The notes below the pieces were generated by a model. The model did not search any database. It worked only from the letters and a program-made list of their open reading frames with translations, and was not told the origin of the DNA. Below, in pieces: positions 27,708-43,699 of a stretch of DNA of 48,041 nucleotides (position 1 is the stretch's first letter; every line of letters starts with the position of its first letter). The position numbers and the translations under genes were made by a program. This DNA is from a virus (Duplodnaviria; Heunggongvirae; Uroviricota; Caudoviricetes). The stretch is from IMG/VR virus record IMGVR_UViG_2721755720_000004, one strand, 5' to 3'.

Positions 27708-29642
27708 TTACGCGTTATTCACTTCCACCACAATGCTGTCAATCAGCACCGGGTATGTTGCACCATTAGTGATATCGGTCACACGCAACTTGTCTGCCGT
27801 AAAAATTCCGACAGTGGACTGCGACAGCATGAACGGCGTCCCGTCCTTACCATCAATGACCGGCGTCACCTCAATACTGTTGTTACCGGCGAAACGGAAG
27901 CCCAACGTATGCCATTCGTTATTAAATGCACCGAATGACCCCAGTTTCATGTTTTGCGCCGTATCGCCCTTGTGGTACATCACGTTAAGGTCTGTCGCAT
28001 CGCTCTGAACGTAAAAAGATGCCAGCAGGTTATGACCAGCATTACCTTCCAGGGTAACCCCTTGTGGCAGGGCAGAAACCGGCCAGTACAGCGCCAGTGC
28101 GTACTGATTAGCCGTAAGCGCGCCATCAAGTTTAAAACGACAACTGACAAGGCCGCCTTTGCCCAGCAGGTCGGCACCATTACCGGCATCATGTTCCAGG
28201 TACCAGGAGGATTTTCCCGTCGCTTTGGTAAGCTTCATCGCCTTACCTCCACTGGCTCCGGCATCATCCACAACAGCGGCACTACCTCCGCCAGCCCCCC
28301 AGCCCTGTGGAGTCAGTTGTCCTTCCGAATCGCTGGCCCTGTATGCAAACAGTGTTGTCATCCCGGTAGTTTCACCCGGTGATGTTGATGGAGTGTCAGG
28401 TGATGGCTTCTCATCCGGTGGTGTCACGGCCTGCCCGCCCAGCAGTTCAGCCGTGCGCCCTGCATGGAGCAGAATAGAGGAGGCCAGACGGTCAGAAATG
28501 ATGCCCCTGCGTGCCCATGAACTGAAATGGCTGTCACGCTGTGTCGAGACAAAACTGCCCTGGGTACGGGATGCCGCACCGTAATACCCGACAGCCACAA
28601 TATCCGGATCTTCCGTCGGAGCATTCGTTGGCGTGTTCTGTCCATTCTCATCCGTCAGGAACGGTACAAAGAAAATATTCTGAGTTTCCTTGCCTTTGTA
28701 GCCACCGTATACCGCCTCATATTTATCGGTGCCAGCGTTTTTCCAGTAATATGTCGTATCACCACAAATCCACGGCACCGTGCCAGCATTTCCACTCACA
28801 CACTGCACAGCAAGCGGAGACAGGTCAGTTCTGAACTGCTGAACCATGGTCGTGAATAAACCATTATGCTGCTGACTTCCCGATGCAAGGTCTGCTTCTC
28901 CCTGCATCCAGACCACTGCCAGAAGTTTGTTTTTCGGGTTCTTCGCCAGCGCCGCTCTGGTACGGCTTACCAGGTCCTGATACAGAGGTTTACCGACTCC
29001 CCAGCGTGAAGAATCAGCGGAAGCACCGCTGGCCTCACTGAATGAACCGTCCGGCCCGGTGGTGAATGCTGACCCGCCACGGCAACAGGGCACCAGAAGT
29101 ATCCCGGCATTCTGCGGGATATAAGGCAGCAGTTTTTTGGCAATATGCAGCCCCTGACTCACACAACCATACTGCCCCTTGTTCAGGTCAGCTTTTGGGT
29201 GGTTTATCCCGCTCATGTCCTGCACATCATGCAGGCAGTGGTCTGCCGGAATGATGTCATTGTATTTACACGGCGTACCACCTGGCGTGACCGTGCTGCG
29301 GCGTGCCAGTTGCTTAATCCGTGGGTCCGGGCGGTCAAATGAATCCGGTAACGGAAGCCCTTCACCATAGGCCATGCCATTTGACTGCCCCGCCAGAACA
29401 ACAACAAAGTAATATTCTGGCTCACTGACTGTGCTCATTACCGTACCGCTGTCACCCGACGGCTTCACCACAACAGGCGTGGTGACATCACCCTCCGCTG
29501 CAATCGCCTGCATCAGGGTATAAGGCGTAATAGCAACCGGACTGCCAAACGGCTGCCAGCCTTCCTTCAGTTTTTGTGACAGTCGCTCCGCAAGCTCTGA
29601 CGGTGAAGCCGCCCTGACCACACCATAATGCTTAAATGTCAT
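27708..29642 (-). CDS. nanS: sialate O-acetylesterase, prophage NanS-p type (N-terminal DUF1737-like domain, SGNH/SASA esterase core, C-terminal lectin-like domain)
   Basis: Start set at MTFKHYGVV, preceded by GGGAGGAG; LAGQSNGMAYGEG (GQSN esterase motif); size and position downstream of the late tRNAs as in Stx-phage nanS-p genes. Confidence 0.85.
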   Translation of the reverse strand: MTFKHYGVVRAASPSELAERLSQKLKEGWQPFGSPVAITPYTLMQAIAAEGDVTTPVVVKPSGDSGTVMSTVSEPEYYFVVVLAGQSNGMAYGEGLPLPDSFDRPDPRIKQLARRSTVTPGGTPCKYNDIIPADHCLHDVQDMSGINHPKADLNKGQYGCVSQGLHIAKKLLPYIPQNAGILLVPCCRGGSAFTTGPDGSFSEASGASADSSRWGVGKPLYQDLVSRTRAALAKNPKNKLLAVVWMQGEADLASGSQQHNGLFTTMVQQFRTDLSPLAVQCVSGNAGTVPWICGDTTYYWKNAGTDKYEAVYGGYKGKETQNIFFVPFLTDENGQNTPTNAPTEDPDIVAVGYYGAASRTQGSFVSTQRDSHFSSWARRGIISDRLASSILLHAGRTAELLGGQAVTPPDEKPSPDTPSTSPGETTGMTTLFAYRASDSEGQLTPQGWGAGGGSAAVVDDAGASGGKAMKLTKATGKSSWYLEHDAGNGADLLGKGGLVSCRFKLDGALTANQYALALYWPVSALPQGVTLEGNAGHNLLASFYVQSDATDLNVMYHKGDTAQNMKLGSFGAFNNEWHTLGFRFAGNNSIEVTPVIDGKDGTPFMLSQSTVGIFTADKLRVTDITNGATYPVLIDSIVVEVNNA

Positions 29643-29814
29643 TGCTCCTCCCGGACGGGATAATGTGTTAACTAAGATGAGAGAGCAGGTGACAGCCCCG
29701 GCCGCATGAAAGTTCTGAGAGGGAAGTGCTGCCTGCTGCTCCATTGCACAGATTAATTACTGTCTGGTAGTATTCAGTGGCTGATTAGAATACTTCACAT
29801 TTTGTTATTTTGTG

Positions 29815-29846
29815 CAGCCCGTTACCATTCGTAGCGGGCTTTTTTT
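29815..29846 (+). terminator. intrinsic terminator (plus strand)
   Basis: Hairpin GCCCG...CGGGC followed by TTTTTTT (gcccgttaccattcgtagcgggcttttttt). Confidence 0.5.
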
Positions 29847-29849
29847 GTC

Positions 29850-29876
29850 CATAAAAAAGCCCCTCCGGAGAGGGGC
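29850..29876 (-). terminator. intrinsic terminator (minus strand) about 30 nt downstream of repeat unit 1
   Basis: Minus strand GCCCCTCTCCGGAGGGGC then TTTTTT; 7-bp GC-rich stem with 4-nt loop. Confidence 0.6.
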
Positions 29877-29907
29877 ATACTAGCTATATATCCATTTATC
29901 ATTGGCT

Positions 29908-30037
29908 GCGTGGTGCCGGGTGCCTCCCGGTGAGCTCAGTCTGGTGTCACTGAGCCCGCACATTCTCGATCCAAGTTATCGTCGGAGATAATACCTGATA
30001 CACCAGACGCCCCTCCGCACAGGGGGATTCACCACGC
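29908..30037 (-). ncRNA. candidate structured small RNA, repeat unit 1 of 4
   Basis: 130 nt; terminal 8 bp GCGTGGTG/CACCACGC pair; conserved GCCGGGTGCCTCCCGGTG and AGGGGGATTC motifs; variable centre with its own 9-bp stem (GTCTGGTGT/ACACCAGAC). Strand inferred from flanking terminator and one G-U wobble in unit 3. Confidence 0.45.
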
Positions 30038-30264
30038 GCAGAGAAGGATACTGAACACTATTTTCTCCAGGCAATATGCAATAACATGAAGTGTGAGATG
30101 ACTTACAATTATAAAAAACAGCCTACAGAATACTCCTAAATAAAGCCATATCAAAATGAGTAACACAAAAAGGAACCAGGCAAAAATTTACGAGCAGGTA
30201 TTATCCAGCAACAGTTCAGACGCCATAACTTATTGCCGATAGCTACCATCAATAATTTCTTTCA

Positions 30265-30289
30265 TAAAAAAGCCCCTCTGAAGAGGGGC
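30265..30289 (-). terminator. intrinsic terminator (minus strand) about 30 nt downstream of repeat unit 2
   Basis: Minus strand GCCCCTCTTCAGAGGGGC then TTTTTT. Confidence 0.6.
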
Positions 30290-30316
30290 TGACATACGCA
30301 TTTGCTTTCATCATCA

Positions 30317-30439
30317 ATATGGCGCCGGGTGCCTCCCGGTGCTCCATAACTGATTAATATGGAACGCGGTTTCATTCAGTTGCATTCATGAATAACACTC
30401 TAATCAGTCCGCCCCGCCGCTTAGGGGGATTCGCCATAT
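30317..30439 (-). ncRNA. candidate structured small RNA, repeat unit 2 of 4
   Basis: 123 nt; terminal stem ATATGGCG/CGCCATAT, which covaries with the other units; same conserved 5' and 3' motifs. Confidence 0.45.
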
Positions 30440-30574
30440 AAATTGAAAGTACTGAACACATCTGTCACAAACAATATGCAATTGTATGAATTGTGAGATT
30501 ATTATCAATAACACAAAATTACAGCTCTAGTACATAAACAGCAGATTAAACAAGAACAACAAAAGTATTGAATT

Positions 30575-30698
30575 GCACGGTGCCGGGTGCCTCCCGGTGA
30601 ATTCTGCAATGACCAGACAGAATCCGCAACTTGCTACTAACGCTAATGCGACCAAGCCTCAGTCATTATGCCCCTCCGCACAGGGGGATTCACCATGC
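30575..30698 (-). ncRNA. candidate structured small RNA, repeat unit 3 of 4
   Basis: 124 nt; terminal stem GCACGGTG/CACCATGC (one C-A on the plus strand, G-U on the minus strand); conserved motifs present; no canonical terminator nearby. Confidence 0.35.
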
Positions 30699-30826
30699 GC
30701 TAAAAAAATACAAAACGTCACGTCACTCTGACAATACGAAGCACCATAAAATGTGAGTTATTTATCAATTCTTAATTCTGGTTACAGGAATATTCCGAAT
30801 CAAATCTTTAAAAAAAGAAATTCAAA

Positions 30827-30931
30827 TGCATGGTGCCGGGTGCCTCCCGGTGAACAGACCGTCCGTGATACCAGTCGGCAACACAGGAAATTAATGGTAT
30901 CACCCCACCGCACAGGGGGATTCACCATGCA
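30827..30931 (-). ncRNA. candidate structured small RNA, repeat unit 4 of 4
   Basis: 105 nt; 9-bp terminal stem TGCATGGTG/CACCATGCA; internal 9-bp stem GTGATACCA/TGGTATCAC; conserved motifs present. Confidence 0.35.
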
Positions 30932-31319
30932 GGCGTTTTCTTAGCAAACTAACTGCGCGCCCGGCAACTCCCAACCACATAAAACGTGGAGTTTGTAGCA
31001 TTTATGCACATAACTCACAGGGGTTATCTTAAAAAAAGCTGACCATGCTTCCCCGGCAACGCAATAACTTTATTCCCTGAAGTGGCATCCCCCGTATTGT
31101 CGGCAGGCTCAAAAAGGAGCCAGTCATCTGAGGATGACTGGAAAAAGGAAAGATAAAAAATTATTCATCATACAACCTTCGTTGCAGGGGAGAATCCTGC
31201 GGTGCAGCAACATACAAAAACATAAGCCAACTAACAATATGCAGGCATAGCATTTTCGGATTTTGTTATATGGCACGGTAACTGAATGCTTACCTGATAT
31301 ACAGTCCGGTATAAAGTTG

Positions 31320-31342
31320 CAAAAAACCGCCAGTTAAGGCGG
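31320..31342 (-). terminator. putative intrinsic terminator (minus strand) downstream of the tRNA pair
   Basis: Minus strand GCCGCCTTAACTGGCGG then TTTTTTG. Confidence 0.45.
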
Positions 31343-31585
31343 CATTCAAACAGACAACAGGATTTTTTCGTAATTTTAACAACTTCGGGGTGGCGCATCG
31401 TCAGCCCCTGTCAGGAAGTACCAGAACTCCCTCCAACAATATCCCCCCATTCAGCGTTATCAAACACAGCACAGAAACTATCAATGTTTGCTGTTACAGT
31501 TAGGGAAAAAACGATAAATACGCCACAGGCTCTTTTTGCTGTGAAGTAAAAACTGATCTGAAAGACTGCTCATCATTTATTTTGC

Positions 31586-31663
31586 TGGACCGTCACCGGG
31601 GACTCGAACCCCGCATTTTCAACATAAAAAGGTTGATGCTCTTTCCTGATGAGCTAGTGACGG
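31586..31663 (-). tRNA. tRNA-like gene with an 8-nt anticodon loop (identity undetermined)
   Basis: Hand fold: acceptor CCGTCAC/GTGACGG (7 bp), U8-A9, D-stem GCTC/GAGC, anticodon stem TCAAC/GTTGA closing loop CTTTTTAT (8 nt), T-arm CGGGG-TTCGAGT-CCCCG, encoded CCA. Needs tRNAscan-SE / ARAGORN. Confidence 0.5.
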
Positions 31664-31665
31664 CA

Positions 31666-31740
31666 TGGTTGCCTTGCTGGATTTGAACCAGCGACCTGGC
31701 GATTATGAGTCTCTCGCTCTCACCACTGAGCTAAAGGGCC
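31666..31740 (-). tRNA. tRNA-like gene with CAU anticodon (Ile2/Met type), acceptor and anticodon stems imperfect
   Basis: GGCCCTT-TA-GCTC-AGTGGTGA-GAGC...CTCATAA...GCTGG-TTCAAAT-CCAGC-AAGGCAACCA; resembles E. coli ileX in D and T arms, but the acceptor stem has 3 mismatches and the anticodon stem 2. Confidence 0.5.
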
Positions 31741-31780
31741 GGGAACAGAATAATAATGGTGCGTAATTAATTCTGCAATC

Positions 31781-32839
31781 TCATCCCTTCTGGCTGACTA
31801 AATCCTGAACTTCCCTGACCGTCTGCTCAAAACGCTCAGTCTCCAGCTCAACGCCAATCGCACGACGCCCCAGTGCCAGCGCCGCTTTGACTGTCGAACC
31901 CGACCCCATGAAGAAATCCGCAACCAGGTCACCCGGACGACTACTCGCTCTGATTATCTGCTGCAGCATTTCTGCCGGTTTTTCGCACGGATGTTTCCCG
32001 GGATAGAACTGCACCGGTTTATGCGTCCACACATCGGTATATGGCACCTGCGCCGTCACGCCAAAATACCGCCGCAGATGCTTATATTCACACTGCAGTT
32101 CCGCATACTGCCGGTTCAGTGAGGTATACGCGGCAACCAGCTGGTGGTGTGGCTTTTCCAGTTCACCGCACTGATGTTTCTCTTCTGCCACCCTGGCAAA
32201 CAGCGCCTGCAATTTCAGATAATCGCGTTCATTCGGTAACTGCCACTGACTGGTACTGAACCAGTGCGACACCATATTTTTCTTGCCCGTGGCCTCTGCA
32301 ATCTGTTTTGCCGTTATCCCCAGGGCTGCACGCGCATCACGAAAGTAAGAAATCAGCGGGGCCATCACATGCTGTTTCAGTTCCCTGCCCTTCGCACCAT
32401 AGCCATCATCTTTCGGAAGGTACGGCCCCTGATAATGTTCCGCAAACAGAATGCGCTCTGTGGCCGGGAAATACGCACGCAGGCTTTCCTTGTTGCACCC
32501 GTTCCAGCGTCCGGATGGCTTCGCCCAGATGATATGGTTCAGCACATTAAAGCGTTCACGCATCATGATTTCGATGTCGGATGCCAGGCGATGCCCACAG
32601 AACAGGTAAATGCTTCCCTCGGGCTTTAATACCCGCCAGAAGTGCGCCAGACACTGGTCCAGCCACTTCAGGTAATCATCATCGCCATTCCACTGGTTAT
32701 CCCAGCCATTGGGTTTTACTTTAAAGTACGGCGGGTCCGTGACTATCAGATCGACAGAGTTTTCAGGTAAGGTCTGGATAAATTCCAGGCAGTCAGCGTT
32801 GATTAACTCACAACTGGATATTTTTACAGTGTTAAGCAT
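31781..32839 (-). CDS. orphan DNA methyltransferase (amino-methyltransferase, N6-adenine or N4-cytosine class)
   Basis: 352 aa; motif IV LIVTDPPY near the N-terminus and AdoMet motif DFFMGSGST near the C-terminus (beta-type order); no adjacent restriction endonuclease. Confidence 0.85.
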   Translation of the reverse strand: MLNTVKISSCELINADCLEFIQTLPENSVDLIVTDPPYFKVKPNGWDNQWNGDDDYLKWLDQCLAHFWRVLKPEGSIYLFCGHRLASDIEIMMRERFNVLNHIIWAKPSGRWNGCNKESLRAYFPATERILFAEHYQGPYLPKDDGYGAKGRELKQHVMAPLISYFRDARAALGITAKQIAEATGKKNMVSHWFSTSQWQLPNERDYLKLQALFARVAEEKHQCGELEKPHHQLVAAYTSLNRQYAELQCEYKHLRRYFGVTAQVPYTDVWTHKPVQFYPGKHPCEKPAEMLQQIIRASSRPGDLVADFFMGSGSTVKAALALGRRAIGVELETERFEQTVREVQDLVSQKG

Positions 32840-35971: not shown

Positions 35972-36127
35972 TTACTCCTCAGGTTCGTAGACTGTGAAAA
36001 CAGCGACCTCCGTCTGGCCGGTTCGGATTCGTACCTCGCAGAGGTCTTTCCTCGTTACCAGTGCCGTCACTATGACGGTTAAACAGATGACGATCAGGGC
36101 GATTAACGTCGCCTTTTGCTGCTTCAT
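35972..36127 (-). CDS. hok: Hok/Gef-family type I toxin
   Basis: 51 aa MKQQKATLIALIVICLTVIVTALVTRKDLCEVRIRTGQTEVAVFTVYEPEE, near-identical to the Hok/Gef/RelF family consensus; the in-frame upstream extension in the ORF track is not used. Confidence 0.85.
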   Translation of the reverse strand: MKQQKATLIALIVICLTVIVTALVTRKDLCEVRIRTGQTEVAVFTVYEPEE

Positions 36128-36372
36128 AGCCTGCTTCTCCTTGCCTTTCGGCACGTAAGAGGCTAACCTACATTTGTGAGACATAGATTGGGCCTCAGAT
36201 TAATGTTAAGCGTCTTGCAGGACGCGTTATGTTAACTGGGGCTTTTCTCTGTCTGCCTTACGGCGGCATGCCCGAGGCAGACAGCCTCAAGCACCCGCAG
36301 CAATTCTACTTAACTCTCGCTTTACAGCAAACCGTTTTTGCCCAATATGGGAATTCCCATATCGCAATGAAT

Positions 36373-42876: not shown

Positions 42877-43699
42877 GGTTACCTCCTTCGAGTACACAAA
42901 AGTTCCCGACTCAAGTTGGTTAAGGATATAACCTTCCGTCTGAGCCTCAAAGTTTTCAAATTCTGCAATTTTAGCTTTGAGAGAAGCATTTATTTCTTAA
43001 TAAGTGCCCACCAGCTCAACGAGAGACACGCATTCGCGCTGAATAGATGCAAGCTTTGAGTTCAGTTCACCAATAGCCGCATTTACTTCAGCTTGAGTTT
43101 TTGCCTCGTTCATTAGTTTTGCAATCTGAGCGGTTTCACGAATAGCCGTCATTGCTGCCGTTAATTCAGCGATCACATTCAATACTCTTATTGTTGTTGT
43201 GGATATCCAGATTAACAAGATCCTTGTTGTTGGGGAATAACAGGTCCACCTCGCCTGACGTGGTTAAAAGCAGGCACACAACACGAAAGCGCTCGGCGAA
43301 GTTCGTCTCTCTGTACTTTGTCGTTAAATTTAATTCGACCGTGCGCTTCCGGTTGTGGCAATCCGCGAAATGGCGCGGCGGTAAGTATGGCGGGGTTATT
43401 CCTTCCCCCATTGAGGACACCGGGTTGTCAGGTTGACCATACGCTTAAGTGACACCCCAGCCACAACAACCTCTGTTATCACTTTTCTGGTGATTCGGCG
43501 GAAATGGATATCCGCCCTTTTTAAAGTGAATTTTGTGATGCGGTGAATGCGGCTATGCGCACGCGGAACAGTTAAAACAAGCGGTCTTTTACTTCCGTAA
43601 CAGACATCAACTAACAATCCGGCGTTAATTGTTAACTGGTTAACGTCATCTGGAGGCACCAGGCACCGCATCACAAAATTCATTGTTGAGGACGCGATA

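Follow-up and report, generated by a model that had tools for sequence, protein, structure and literature searches.

Introduction

STnc100 (Rfam RF02076) is a family of gammaproteobacterial small RNAs (sRNAs) that was first listed in Salmonella. In EDL933, 11 STnc100 copies are annotated and, by RNA-seq, transcribed, and one of these, STnc100_4, has been confirmed by Northern blotting (PMC5331693). Members are expected to be expressed as discrete RNAs of ~160-210 nt. RpoD binding has been reported at the STnc100 copies of LT2. Few prophage RNAs of pathogenic E. coli are as abundant as STnc100, EcOnc27 and PasD, which adjoin stx2. Sequence variation in the stx2-adjacent copy is statistically linked to clinical outcome (PMC12711010), and links of STnc100 members to stxB and to fimZ/espA have been proposed in silico or from overexpression. 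EcOnc27, also called sRNA103, is bound by Hfq as detected by Hfq-CRAC and is seen on Northern blots; PasD, detected by RIL-seq and Northern blotting, is Hfq-associated as well. [quoted passage not shown] The anti-sRNAs AgvB and AsxR are, according to Tree et al. (2014), short convergent partners of STnc100-like RNAs and not STnc100-like RNAs themselves.

Here we analyze an array of four structured repeat units in a Caudoviricetes genome, IMG/VR record IMGVR_UViG_2721755720_000004. The whole stretch of 48,041 nt is referred to below as the window.

Results

Family identity of the four units

The four units are tandem, diverged genes of an already catalogued prophage small-RNA family, STnc100 (Table 1). 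All of them match the RF02076 covariance model over its full length (model positions 1-206) on the minus strand, with scores of 132.9, 99.6, 101.5 and 76.6 bits for units 1 to 4, respectively, and E-values from 4e-29 to 1e-14. The threshold for membership was the curated gathering score of the family, 47 bits for the whole model of 206 positions. Our core model, R1, gives 95.6, 97, 91 and 86.8 bits for the same units. The original prediction, made from the sequence without database searches, had regarded the units as unnamed and perhaps a new family while proposing a covariance-model search of Rfam; that search returned a known family for every unit. The closing stem and both conserved hairpins that had been noticed are already part of the RF02076 consensus, whose structure (a closing stem around CCCCU/AGGGG and CCGGG/CCCGG hairpins, plus central helices) is present in the units. 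The first ~29 positions of the model seem to cover promoter sequence and not RNA. No riboswitch, ribozyme or protein-binding Rfam family matches the units. They are non-coding, as had been proposed: the overlapping ORFs are all short (30-63 aa), and the indels between units are not multiples of three.

Table 1. Coordinates of the array units, their parts and neighboring features in the window.
Feature	Position	Strand	Parts	Basis
Unit 1, complete STnc100 gene	29847..30067	-	Five-helix core 29908-30037; unpaired linker 29877-29907; terminator stem 29859-29876, U6 tail to 29853	Rfam extent, R1, terminator scan
Predicted proximal promoter of unit 1	30045..30074	-	-35 TTGCCT 30069-30074; 18-nt spacer; -10 TATCCT 30045-30050	Inferred by comparison with the upstream region typical of the family
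Unit 2, complete STnc100 gene	30260..30465	-	Core 30317-30439; linker 30291-30316; terminator stem 30271-30290, U6 tail to 30265	Rfam, R1, terminator scan
Unit 2 promoter region	30446..30508	-	Proximal promoter (by homology): -35 TTGTTT 30469-30474, 17-nt spacer, -10 TACTTT 30446-30451; stronger distal sigma-70-like site TTGATA-16-TACAAT, 30508 to 30481 (scan score 10/12)	Scan and homology
Unit 3, promoter and core without linker-terminator module	30530..30727	-	Core 30575-30698	Rfam, R1
Unit 3 promoter	30705..30734	-	TTGTCA-18-TATTTT	Scan 9/12; homologous to family-typical promoter
Unit 4, core with shortened P4, without terminator	30782..30960	-	Core 30828-30930	Rfam, R1
Predicted unit 4 promoter	30938..30967	-	-35 TTGCCG 30962-30967; 18-nt spacer; extended -10 TGC-TAAGAA 30938-30943	Inferred by homology
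Pair of phage tRNA genes preceding the array in the sense of late transcription	31586..31741	-	tRNA(CAU) 31667-31741; tRNA-Lys-like gene 31586-31663	ARAGORN, Rfam tRNA, RefSeq annotation
Convergent intrinsic terminator facing unit 1	29816..29847	+		Terminator scan
Fifth core copy (subfamily 2)	43536..43673	+		R1, 73.6 bits, E 4e-18

Fold, covariation and strand

The core of each unit is a five-helix junction of 103-130 nt. P1 is the closing stem, P2 is a hairpin, P3 closes a hypervariable insert, P4 is a second hairpin, and P5 is a hairpin with the invariant loop AGGCA. The core boundaries agree with those originally assigned, with a shift of 1 nt at each end of unit 4. The invariant block common to the units, CACCGGGAGGCACCCGG in minus-strand reading, occurs four times compared with 0.00 expected from 100 shuffles. 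The terminal 8-mers are mutually complementary in each unit, exactly as had been described (P1 of unit 2, for example, is AUAUGGCG/CGCCAUAU), and only one pair is odd: in unit 3 it reads C-A in the plus-strand sequence but G-U in that of the minus strand. The centers of the units had been called unrelated, yet they contain two homologous, covarying helices, P4 and P3, the latter closing the hypervariable insert of 21 to 59 nt.

Covariation was assessed in two sets, comprising 59 distinct homologs aligned with MAFFT and 82 distinct homologs aligned to the model. Among the 59 homologs, individual positions of the closing stem show up to 4-6 standard pair types. The structure as a whole is 95.7% paired, compared with 79.9% after shuffling (0/500); sliding the partners lowers the value to 37-43%. 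RNAalifold, run on this set, recovered the same structure independently, backed by compensatory changes and by these controls. Among the 82 homologs, 97.2% of pair cells are paired, and double-sided changes occur in 22 of the 27 pairs. The compensatory change in the closing stem, which the original prediction had taken as a sign of selection on a folded nucleic acid, is borne out in both sets, and the covariation is not a four-copy accident. Each unit by itself folds into the consensus structure. Throughout, the unpaired nucleotides are constant in every context while all helices change by compensation. Pairing between the loops of P2 and P5, sought by inspection, amounts to at most 2-3 bp, with no covariation seen.

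The strand of the RNA had been left unfixed by the first reading of the sequence. The RNA is read from the minus strand, as are the late transcripts, because P1 contains G-U rather than A-C pairs in that reading (10 versus 3 at closing-stem positions 3-8 among 24 distinct stem types), because the minus-strand RNA folds better by 2-13 kcal/mol in all four units, and because the terminators lie on the minus strand.

Promoters, linkers and terminators

Upstream of P1, the homologs share a conserved region containing -35/-10 elements, the end of which lies ~6-7 nt from P1, and in most distinct homologs a terminator follows 22-31 nt after P1. The start site of unit 1 is placed by prediction at or near the first P1 base, 30037, and that of unit 3 at its P1, 30698. 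The terminator part of RF02076 (model positions ~175-206) is present in units 1 and 2, both of which end in a U6-tailed terminator, and is deleted or mismatched in units 3 and 4. In the full-length minimum free energy (MFE) fold of unit 1, the domain, a free linker and the terminator coexist (z -3.05); units 3 and 4 have neither the linker nor the terminator. For unit 3, the alignment to the model has a deletion over the terminator part, and no terminator was found in the sequence; its homologs at 86% identity (L006, L111 and L116) have both linker and terminator. The closest relative of unit 4 (L029, 91%) likewise lacks a terminator.

Genomic slot and spread

The order of genes at the locus is a Q-type antiterminator (PF03589), a DNA methylase, two tRNAs, the array, a SASA/DUF6645 esterase, a holin and a lysozyme. 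Domain matches and an identical RefSeq locus confirm the location first assigned to the array, between the tRNAs and a nanS-p-type esterase gene. The array thus lies in the Q-to-lysis region of an Enterobacteriaceae prophage, the setting by which STnc100 is characterized, and an Stx2 phage has the same layout: a single STnc100 copy (154 bits), known as EcOnc27/sRNA103 and ~82% identical to unit 1, starts 75 nt after stx2B, with the gene order as here. The slot is therefore indeed the one in which Stx phages carry toxin genes, but the array stands for stx2AB plus one STnc100 copy and not for the toxin genes alone, because Stx2 phages carry both in it.

The plus-strand terminator facing unit 1 may mark where a short partner RNA on the antisense side ends, in keeping with the dyad arrangement that Tree et al. 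(2014) described for this slot. A weak RybB-like match (21 bits, E 0.31) lies at 29789-29847. The suggestion that the units might be prophage Hfq-dependent anti-sRNAs holds insofar as their relatives are Hfq-associated prophage sRNAs, but neither the units nor a convergent partner are AgvB or AsxR, since RF02702 and RF02703 have no match within 29500-31800 at E<=1 and none window-wide at the gathering score. The published PasA and PasC probe sequences have no match in the window within 3 mismatches. IpeX, the DLP12 sRNA of the equivalent slot in K-12, was also rejected as a relative, the best core-model score in NC_000913 571500-578500 (quuD-nmpC-essD) being 5.7 bits (E 0.9), and we found no literature link between IpeX and STnc100.

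The exact array is found in 17 of 5,426 complete E. coli genomes; strains with this prophage include M18 (NZ_CP010219) and CI5 (NZ_CP011018). Arrays of 2-5 STnc100 copies recur across Enterobacterales, so that the present one is a large example but not a unique one. An array from Pantoea (L316) has three domains 8-17 nt apart that lack terminators and have completely resequenced P1 stems, with a terminator on the fourth only, a layout comparable to that of the window's units 4, 3 and 2.

The core outside sRNA genes

The core model revealed a fifth core copy outside the array, in the spacer that separates a DicF-like sRNA from dicB (PF05358) in the window. It scores 32.5 bits with RF02076, under the cut-off of 47. 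This copy lacks its own promoter and terminator, retains the AGGCA loop and shows a compensatory change in the P5 stem. The same core is present in the dicF-dicB spacer of E. coli K-12 MG1655, in the dicBF operon of Qin, as an element of 130 nt at NC_000913.3 1649453-1649582 (72.7 bits with the core model, E ~1e-18), and 17 distinct copies lie between DicF and dicB in viral contigs. Neither the study of dicBF processing and regulation nor the Pas preprint describes a structure in this spacer, which is weak evidence given that coverage of subscription journals was thin.

The core also occurs, unannotated, next to tRNA genes. In two loci (L011 and L302) 5-8 nt separate its end from the 5' end of a tRNA, and in four others (L012, L093, L118 and L151) it lies within tRNA clusters. 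Like the dicF-dicB copies, these have no promoter, linker or terminator of their own, and those that abut tRNA genes are probably co-transcribed with them. The stable RNAs encoded in the T4 tRNA cluster may offer a parallel to the core, considered here as a possible analogy. A tRNA or tRNA-like identity for the domain itself was rejected: ARAGORN and RF00005 call only the two genuine tRNAs of the window and no domain in related loci. The occurrence of the core alone in tRNA clusters and in the dicF-dicB spacer suggests that the domain has a function of its own, and the core may be an autonomous RNA module.

Discussion

We consider it somewhat probable (roughly 0.6) that the units, being STnc100 genes, act as self-contained, prophage-expressed sRNA morons. 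Each unit would be read from its own sigma-70-type promoter, with a predicted start at or next to the first P1 base. In units 1 and 2 the transcript would consist of the five-helix domain, an unpaired linker of 26-31 nt and a Rho-independent terminator with a U6 tail, the order characteristic of Hfq-associated sRNAs that act by base pairing. With PasD as a guide, the seed for target pairing would lie in the linker, and the 5' domain would serve as a stable scaffold. In PasD2, the 5' end determined by RNA-seq (NC_011601:741157) coincides with P1, the proposed seed UGUGAG lies between domain and terminator, and RIL-seq chimeras map to the same 3' part. Units 3 and 4 have kept promoter and domain and lost the linker-terminator module; they may be read through to the terminator of unit 2 as a multi-domain RNA, or they may be decaying copies. 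During lytic growth, Q-modified polymerase would read through these sRNA morons. The array fills the slot that holds stx2AB and one STnc100 gene in Stx2 phages.

Several observations sit uneasily with this explanation. Hfq-dependent sRNAs need a terminator and U-tail, which are missing from units 3 and 4, and the abundance of PasD is not reduced in an hfq mutant (log2FC +0.55 and -0.18, not significant), unlike that of PasA, PasB and PasC (log2FC -2.8, -6.8 and -2.1). A junction of 110-130 nt with invariant loop and junction nucleotides far exceeds what a stabilizing 5' hairpin requires, and the core also stands free of linker and terminator in tRNA clusters and between dicF and dicB. It is conceivable, if tentative, that function resides in the five-helix core and not in a seed within the linker. 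The core would then be a structured, autonomous RNA module that binds a protein, a small ligand or RNA through its invariant junction and loop nucleotides (AAU, U..GC, G, CA and AGGCA), or that directs the processing or stability of the adjoining RNA. The STnc100 and PasD sRNAs would be one packaging of the module, equipped with a promoter and a terminator, and arrays would be multivalent, with a logic like that of multi-site decoy RNAs. Copies of the core without promoter or terminator beside tRNAs and between DicF and dicB, both in the window and in K-12 MG1655, point in this direction, as do the constancy of unpaired nucleotides amid compensating helices in all contexts, the terminator-less Pantoea domains with their resequenced P1 stems and the independence of PasD abundance from Hfq. 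On the other hand, a partner is not inferable from the sequence; none of the riboswitch, ribozyme or protein-binding families in Rfam matches; the relatives crosslink or ligate to Hfq and to mRNAs via their 3' parts; and in a compact phage operon an ORF or tRNA is nearby by default, so that adjacency is weak evidence. There is perhaps some chance that the core is a portable module of temperate enterobacterial phages with a partner or activity of its own, whether binding, a processing or stability signal, or catalysis. With a similarly guarded expectation, such a module could be deployed in three ways: as sRNA genes and arrays of 2-5, fused a few nucleotides upstream of phage tRNAs, and inside the dicBF operon.

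Two further explanations were weighed against that of sRNA morons. A promoter, a structured domain, a short linker and a terminator before a same-strand gene form a typical attenuator layout, and the units could in principle be cis-acting leaders, attenuator- or riboswitch-like, that gate the esterase and lysis genes and release sRNAs as terminated by-products. The distances to the esterase start codon, 87 nt from the end of PasD2 and ~210 nt from the end of unit 1, would suit such a role, as would the position of subfamily 2 copies just upstream of ORFs such as dicB. We nevertheless regard it as quite unlikely. No conserved antiterminator pairing is seen by inspection: complementarity between P2 and the terminator exists in units 1 and 2 and is absent in PasD, L004 and L099, and the MFE fold of unit 1 keeps both hairpins, on which grounds a riboswitch-type antiterminator was rejected. 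Four tandem copies, two of them without terminators, are unfit for a single gate, and no known ligand-binding family matches. In lytic growth of lambdoid phages, moreover, terminators are ignored by Q-modified polymerase anyway. Still more improbable, to the point that we rejected it, is that the repeats act at the DNA level, as REP/ERIC-like sequences, as sites of recombination or as a miniature transposable element, with pairing a by-product of palindromy. The terminal inverted 8-mers do superficially resemble terminal inverted repeats, the 17-nt P5 block identical in all copies could promote homologous exchange, and domain and linker-terminator variants occur in shuffled combinations. However, the arms vary and yet stay complementary (GCAUGGUG, UUGCGGUG, AUAUGGCG, CUGUGGUG, GGAACG, UGCUAUG and others), which is the opposite of what is seen in protein-recognized inverted repeats. 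Wobble pairs are G-U on one strand only, the four internal helices covary too, the relatives are abundant discrete RNAs, and inspection of the window showed no target-site duplications. The compensating arms and the strand asymmetry of G-U decided the matter.

As a correct rediscovery of a catalogued family, the array by itself changes little. A prophage in which four diverged copies stand where the toxin cassette would be nonetheless offers a natural system for studying RNA function with the toxin removed as a confounder. The core fold, moreover, is not confined to sRNA genes: next to tRNAs and between dicF and dicB of K-12 it retains the same invariant loop and junction nucleotides, which suggests that the field may be studying the wrong part of these RNAs, the seed instead of the domain; the K-12 spacer is a tractable locus for testing this idea. 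If the core were an autonomous module, the array in the window would be a multivalent, partly polycistronic version of it, and the label of sRNA would hide an undescribed class of phage RNA.

Comparison with known systems

In its helix order, the core resembles class II tRNAs (acceptor, D, anticodon, variable arm, T), with almost no junction nucleotides. The likeness is confined to topology: instead of a 7-nt T-loop, P5 has a loop of 5 nt, and the core has neither a CCA end nor an anticodon-like loop. The K-12 dicF-dicB element, which is not annotated, differs from the units in being internal to a polycistronic transcript, without promoter, linker-seed or terminator.

AgvB and AsxR (RF02702 and RF02703) bind Hfq and, in the lambdoid prophages of E. 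coli pathogens, lie in the moron slot downstream of pR' that the units also occupy, but they are short RNAs with a common 3' region of ~42 nt and are convergent to an STnc100-like RNA. A hallmark of these anti-sRNAs is sequence mimicking the site in an mRNA that a core sRNA (GcvB, FnrS) targets. PasD1 and PasD2 of EPEC E2348/69, which are EcOnc13 homologs, have the same build of domain, linker and terminator, and PasD2 lies directly upstream of a sialate esterase gene. They fall under the RF02076 cut-off, with 41 and 38 bits versus 47, and differ in a degenerate P5, a shortened P2 loop and another terminator and linker. EcOnc27/sRNA103 of Sp5 and 933W occupies the same slot between pR'-proximal tRNAs and the esterase and has the same architecture. 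It is a single copy after the toxin genes, with a linker unlike those of units 1 and 2, and its convergent partner AsxR has no Rfam-detectable counterpart in the window. Compared with the RF02076 model, units 3 and 4 are missing the 3' terminator part, and the locus brings together four diverged copies in tandem within 1.1 kb.

Identity of the repeat units

Searching the entire window with Rfam 15 models, at curated thresholds, gave four full-length matches to STnc100 (RF02076), all on the minus strand. Since these matches exceed the family cut-off of 47 bits, and the closing stem and the two conserved hairpins are already present in the RF02076 consensus, the units are members of a named family, and the idea of an unnamed or new family has to be given up. 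The four units do lie at the positions given in the original prediction. Read on the minus strand, each comprises an 8-nt strand, AAU, a CCCCU/AGGGG hairpin, a variable stretch, a second hairpin, CA, a CCGGG-AGGCA-CCCGG hairpin and the complementary 8-nt strand. The window has four occurrences of the 17-mer CACCGGGAGGCACCCGG, compared with 0.00 expected from 100 shuffles. The units are non-coding, as had been proposed: overlapping ORFs are all short (30-63 aa), and indels between copies are not multiples of three.

Coordinates of the units and of other features discussed in the text (window positions unless a sequence is named)
Feature	Position	RF02076 match	Strand	Details
Unit 1	29908-30037	30067-29847	-	132.9 bits; 5′ strand of P1 GCGUGGUG
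Unit 2	30317-30439	30465-30260	-	99.6 bits; 5′ strand of P1 AUAUGGCG
Unit 3	30575-30698	30727-30530	-	101.5 bits; 5′ strand of P1 GCAUGGUG
Unit 4	30828-30930	30960-30782	-	76.6 bits; 5′ strand of P1 GCAUGGUG
Convergent terminator	29789-29847		+	AGCCCGTTACC...GGGCT-T7
Sigma-70-like site, unit 1	30127-30154		-	TTGATA-16-TATTCT, 9/12
Sigma-70-like site, unit 2	30481-30508		-	TTGATA-16-TACAAT, 10/12
tRNA-Lys	31586-31663		-	ARAGORN: four-base anticodon (uuuu)
tRNA-Ile	31667-31741		-	anticodon CAU
sok antitoxin RNA	36122-36296		-	Rfam RF01794, 116 bits
DicF-like sRNA	43484-43522		+	DicF 5′ seed UUUCUGGUGA and terminator
Fifth core copy	43536-43673		+	core model, 73.6 bits
K-12 MG1655 core copy	NC_000913.3 ~1649453-1649582			L124 1154-1283; 72.7 bits, E ~1e-18
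Domains before tRNAs	L011 684-886 and 1310-1507			tRNA-Arg (UCU), tRNA-Met (CAU)
Domain before tRNA, Citrobacter braakii	L302 11065-11270			tRNA-Met (CAU)
Five-domain array, Candidatus Pantoea formicae	L316 12894-14332		-	

Fold and coding strand

Homologues fetched from IMG/VR by the exact P5 block gave 59 distinct domains, and RNAalifold on their MAFFT alignment yielded a compact five-helix junction: P1 (an 8-bp closing stem), hairpin P2, P3 (a short stem closing a hypervariable insert), and hairpins P4 and P5. In this alignment 95.7% of the cells are paired, versus 79.9% after shuffling (0 of 500 shuffles as high) and 37-43% with the 3′ partners displaced by 1-3 columns, and the covariation score is 0.430 versus 0.146. 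P5 is invariant in this set because its exact block was used for retrieval. In a second, independent retrieval based on the P2 block of a diverged subfamily, P5 alternates between CCGGG/CCCGG (17 distinct domains) and CCUGG/CCAGG (42) around a constant AGGCA loop, with a single P5 mismatch in only two cases. When 82 distinct sequences were aligned to the core model, a covariance model that we built from the five-helix core alone, 97.2% of the cells were paired and double-sided changes occurred in 22 of 27 pairs, across all five helices, in an alignment that leans towards structure because it was fitted to that model. RNAalifold, pair counts and shuffle controls bear out the proposal of folded, covarying units, with compensatory changes in all five helices. 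The description of their centres as unrelated has to be amended: P3 and P4 are homologous helices, and free variation is confined to the P3 insert (21-59 nt) and the loop of P4.

Several pieces of evidence place the RNA on the minus strand: (i) among 24 distinct types, closing-stem positions 3-8 contain 10 G-U versus 3 A-C pairs in the minus-strand reading; (ii) minus-strand RNA folds 2-13 kcal/mol better for all four units; (iii) the unit terminators lie on this strand; and (iv) the family model matches it.

Promoters, linkers and terminators

Upstream of a typical homologue lies a -35 element (TTGnCn), separated by 17-18 nt from a -10 element (often TG-n-TAAAAG or TATTTT) that ends 6-7 nt before P1; 22-31 nt past P1 comes a terminator, commonly GCCCCUCUCCGGAGGGGC-U6. 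The RNA-seq 5′ end of PasD2, an EPEC relative, at NC_011601:741157 coincides with the PasD2 P1 strand; the proposed PasD2 seed, UGUGAG, lies in the U-rich linker from domain to terminator, and RIL-seq chimeras map to the same 3′ part. Homologous promoter elements are present at all four window units, that of unit 3 (TTGTCA-18-TATTTT) being detected by a consensus scan as well. In units 1 and 2 a canonical terminator follows a linker of 31 and 26 nt, respectively, and the full-length unit 1 RNA is predicted to fold into domain, free linker and terminator (z = -3.05). Additional sigma-70-like sites, ~90 and ~42 nt before P1 of units 1 and 2, respectively, are situated farther upstream than the family-typical promoters and might give longer 5′ leaders.

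No terminator was found for units 3 and 4. Since homologues of unit 3 at 86% identity possess one, the 3′ module has been lost from unit 3; the closest relative of unit 4 likewise has none. Transcription may read through from unit 4 to the terminator of unit 2. The minimum free energy fold predicted for such an RNA has units 4 and 3, whose P1 strands are identical, exchanging P1 partners, and unit 2, with a different P1, folding separately. Among the retrieved homologues (L-numbers), a few discrete linker-terminator modules, including one PasD-like tail, are paired with differing domain variants (e.g., L014, L015, L121, L007, L045; L036, L048, L060, L075, L115), which suggests that domains and 3′ modules are shuffled by recombination at the conserved P5/P1 boundary.

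Core copies outside sRNA genes

The window contains a fifth core copy, of the diverged subfamily (subfamily 2), which RF02076 scores at 32.5 bits, under its cut-off. This copy is set 13 nt past a DicF-like sRNA, and 27 nt separate its end from the dicB start codon. The DicF-like sRNA spans ~39 nt versus 53 nt for K-12 DicF and is unreported by Rfam even at E<=1. In K-12 MG1655 the same element occupies the spacer between dicF and dicB in the Qin prophage; it carries no RefSeq annotation and is unmentioned in a recent study of dicBF processing. Viral contigs provide 17 distinct core copies between DicF and dicB, and most of their remaining subfamily 2 copies are located just upstream of assorted ORFs.

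Other copies adjoin tRNA genes. Two core domains in L011 end 7-8 nt, and one in Citrobacter braakii 5 nt, before the 5′ end of a same-strand tRNA. The leader and a short spacer (CGCTT...) are conserved across both L011 cases. The sequence arrangement suggests that these composites are co-transcribed, in which case RNase P would set the 3′ end of the domain. Several phages carry a core copy 108 nt after tRNA-Ser.

Copies at the dicF-dicB, ORF-upstream and tRNA sites have no promoter, linker or terminator of their own. Whatever the context, a fixed set of unpaired nucleotides is invariant: AAU following P1, U..GC of the P2 loop, a single G separating P3 from P4, CA before P5, and the AGGCA loop of P5. 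Genuine copies are spread over the Enterobacterales (Escherichia, Salmonella, Citrobacter, Klebsiella, Enterobacter, Pantoea, Erwinia, Rahnella, Cedecea and others). Among pattern matches in unrelated phyla, the core model confirms none except in a few metagenome bins. The 75-77-bit copies in bins labelled Bacillota and Candidatus Nanosynbacter (L238, L314) are most likely binning contamination rather than evidence of true hosts; the L314 copy equals E. coli copy L298 in score and length.

Distribution of tandem arrays

The exact four-copy array is found in 17 of 5,426 complete E. coli genomes, many from mice, and none of 50,697 phage records covers it (best coverage 25%, about one unit). Tandem STnc100 copies as such are common; the 136 clusters in the retrieved viral contigs and the window comprise 115 single, 12 double, 7 triple and 2 quadruple ones. 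Representative genomes of other Enterobacterales contain arrays of four (Superficieibacter, Citrobacter braakii) and of five (Candidatus Pantoea formicae). In the Pantoea array, three successive domains without terminators are spaced 8-17 nt apart, P1 stems are wholly different yet fully compensated (e.g., GGAACG/CGUUCC, UGCUAUG/CAUAGCA), and only the fourth domain of the run has a linker and terminator, the same pattern as in window units 4, 3 and 2. No description of tandem STnc100 arrays was found in the accessible literature; in the Pas preprint the PasD copies are distal, not tandem.

Proposed function and alternatives

The evidence best supports reading units 1 and 2 as complete sRNA genes of the STnc100/PasD type, each transcribed on its own. 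The prophage would express them, and during lytic growth Q-modified polymerase would read through them. As Hfq-associated RNAs they would base-pair via the linker, with the 5′ domain conferring stability. The family identity, strand, fold and context of the units are direct results of this analysis, and we infer probable start sites, Hfq dependence and seed position by analogy with relatives.

A less probable reading, which we hold only tentatively, is that the five-helix core is itself the functional unit and arrays are multivalent versions of it. It gains what weight it has because the domain size and invariant loops exceed a pure scaffold role, because the core is found without any seed or terminator, and because PasD abundance is not lowered in an hfq mutant, unlike that of PasA, PasB and PasC (log2FC -0.18 for PasD1 and +0.55 for PasD2, not significant; the other three reduced; PMC8550237 Table S2). 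These PasD levels do not sit easily with the label 'Hfq-dependent stability'. We consider a cis-acting attenuator unlikely, since there is no conserved alternative pairing and the domain and terminator of unit 1 coexist in the predicted fold. A DNA-level repeat is unlikely too, given that the arms compensate, wobble pairs are strand-specific and internal helices covary.

Comparison with Stx2 phages and known STnc100 RNAs

E. coli CI5 carries an identical locus, in the order antitermination protein, hypothetical protein, DNA methyltransferase, tRNA-Ile, tRNA-Lys, ~1.9 kb unannotated, DUF6645 protein, DUF1378, DUF826, holin, lysozyme. Pfam identifies Q (PF03589), a methylase and a SASA/DUF6645/DUF1737 esterase of nanS-p type at the window locus. 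Of the two adjoining tRNA genes, one is annotated as tRNA-Ile; the other has an enlarged anticodon loop according to ARAGORN, and RefSeq calls the identical gene tRNA-Lys. Elsewhere in the prophage, in its early-to-late region, the sok RNA and a hokD-type toxin gene are neighbours.

Stx2 phage WGPS6 has Q, three tRNAs, stx2A, stx2B, one STnc100 gene (154 bits) and esterase, in that order; the array therefore takes the position of the toxin genes plus the single STnc100 gene. Placing it in the Stx toxin-gene slot was thus correct, but that slot holds an STnc100 gene too, to which unit 1 is the closest relative (~82% identity). Tree et al. 2014 described this slot with convergent pairs of Hfq-binding sRNAs in at least 8 Sakai prophages. 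A strong intrinsic plus-strand terminator lies head-on to unit 1 in the window, and many homologues have a similar second hairpin after their terminator. The window terminator may point to a short, convergently transcribed partner RNA of the kind described by Tree et al. 2014; the AsxR and AgvB models give no match there.

Eleven STnc100 copies are annotated and transcribed in EDL933, one of them Northern-confirmed (PMC5331693), and RpoD is bound upstream of several copies in LT2 (PMC10794520). In Stx2 phages a copy 75 nt downstream of stx2B has been detected in outer-membrane vesicles (PMC12370729) and overlaps the Hfq-bound sRNA EcOnc27, also called sRNA103 (PMC12711010, PMC7873438, PMC4104026). 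A 2026 preprint from the Storz laboratory reports structural homology of STnc100 to the EPEC sRNAs PasD1 and PasD2. We found an established function for no member in this literature. Overall, the observation behind the original prediction is confirmed and its interpretation supported in part. Both the curated RNA family, of which the array is a large example, and the slot are known, so there is little new in the finding as submitted; of moderate interest are the role of this family and the possibility that its core is a phage RNA module in its own right, one that has gone unnoticed in the K-12 dicBF operon as well.
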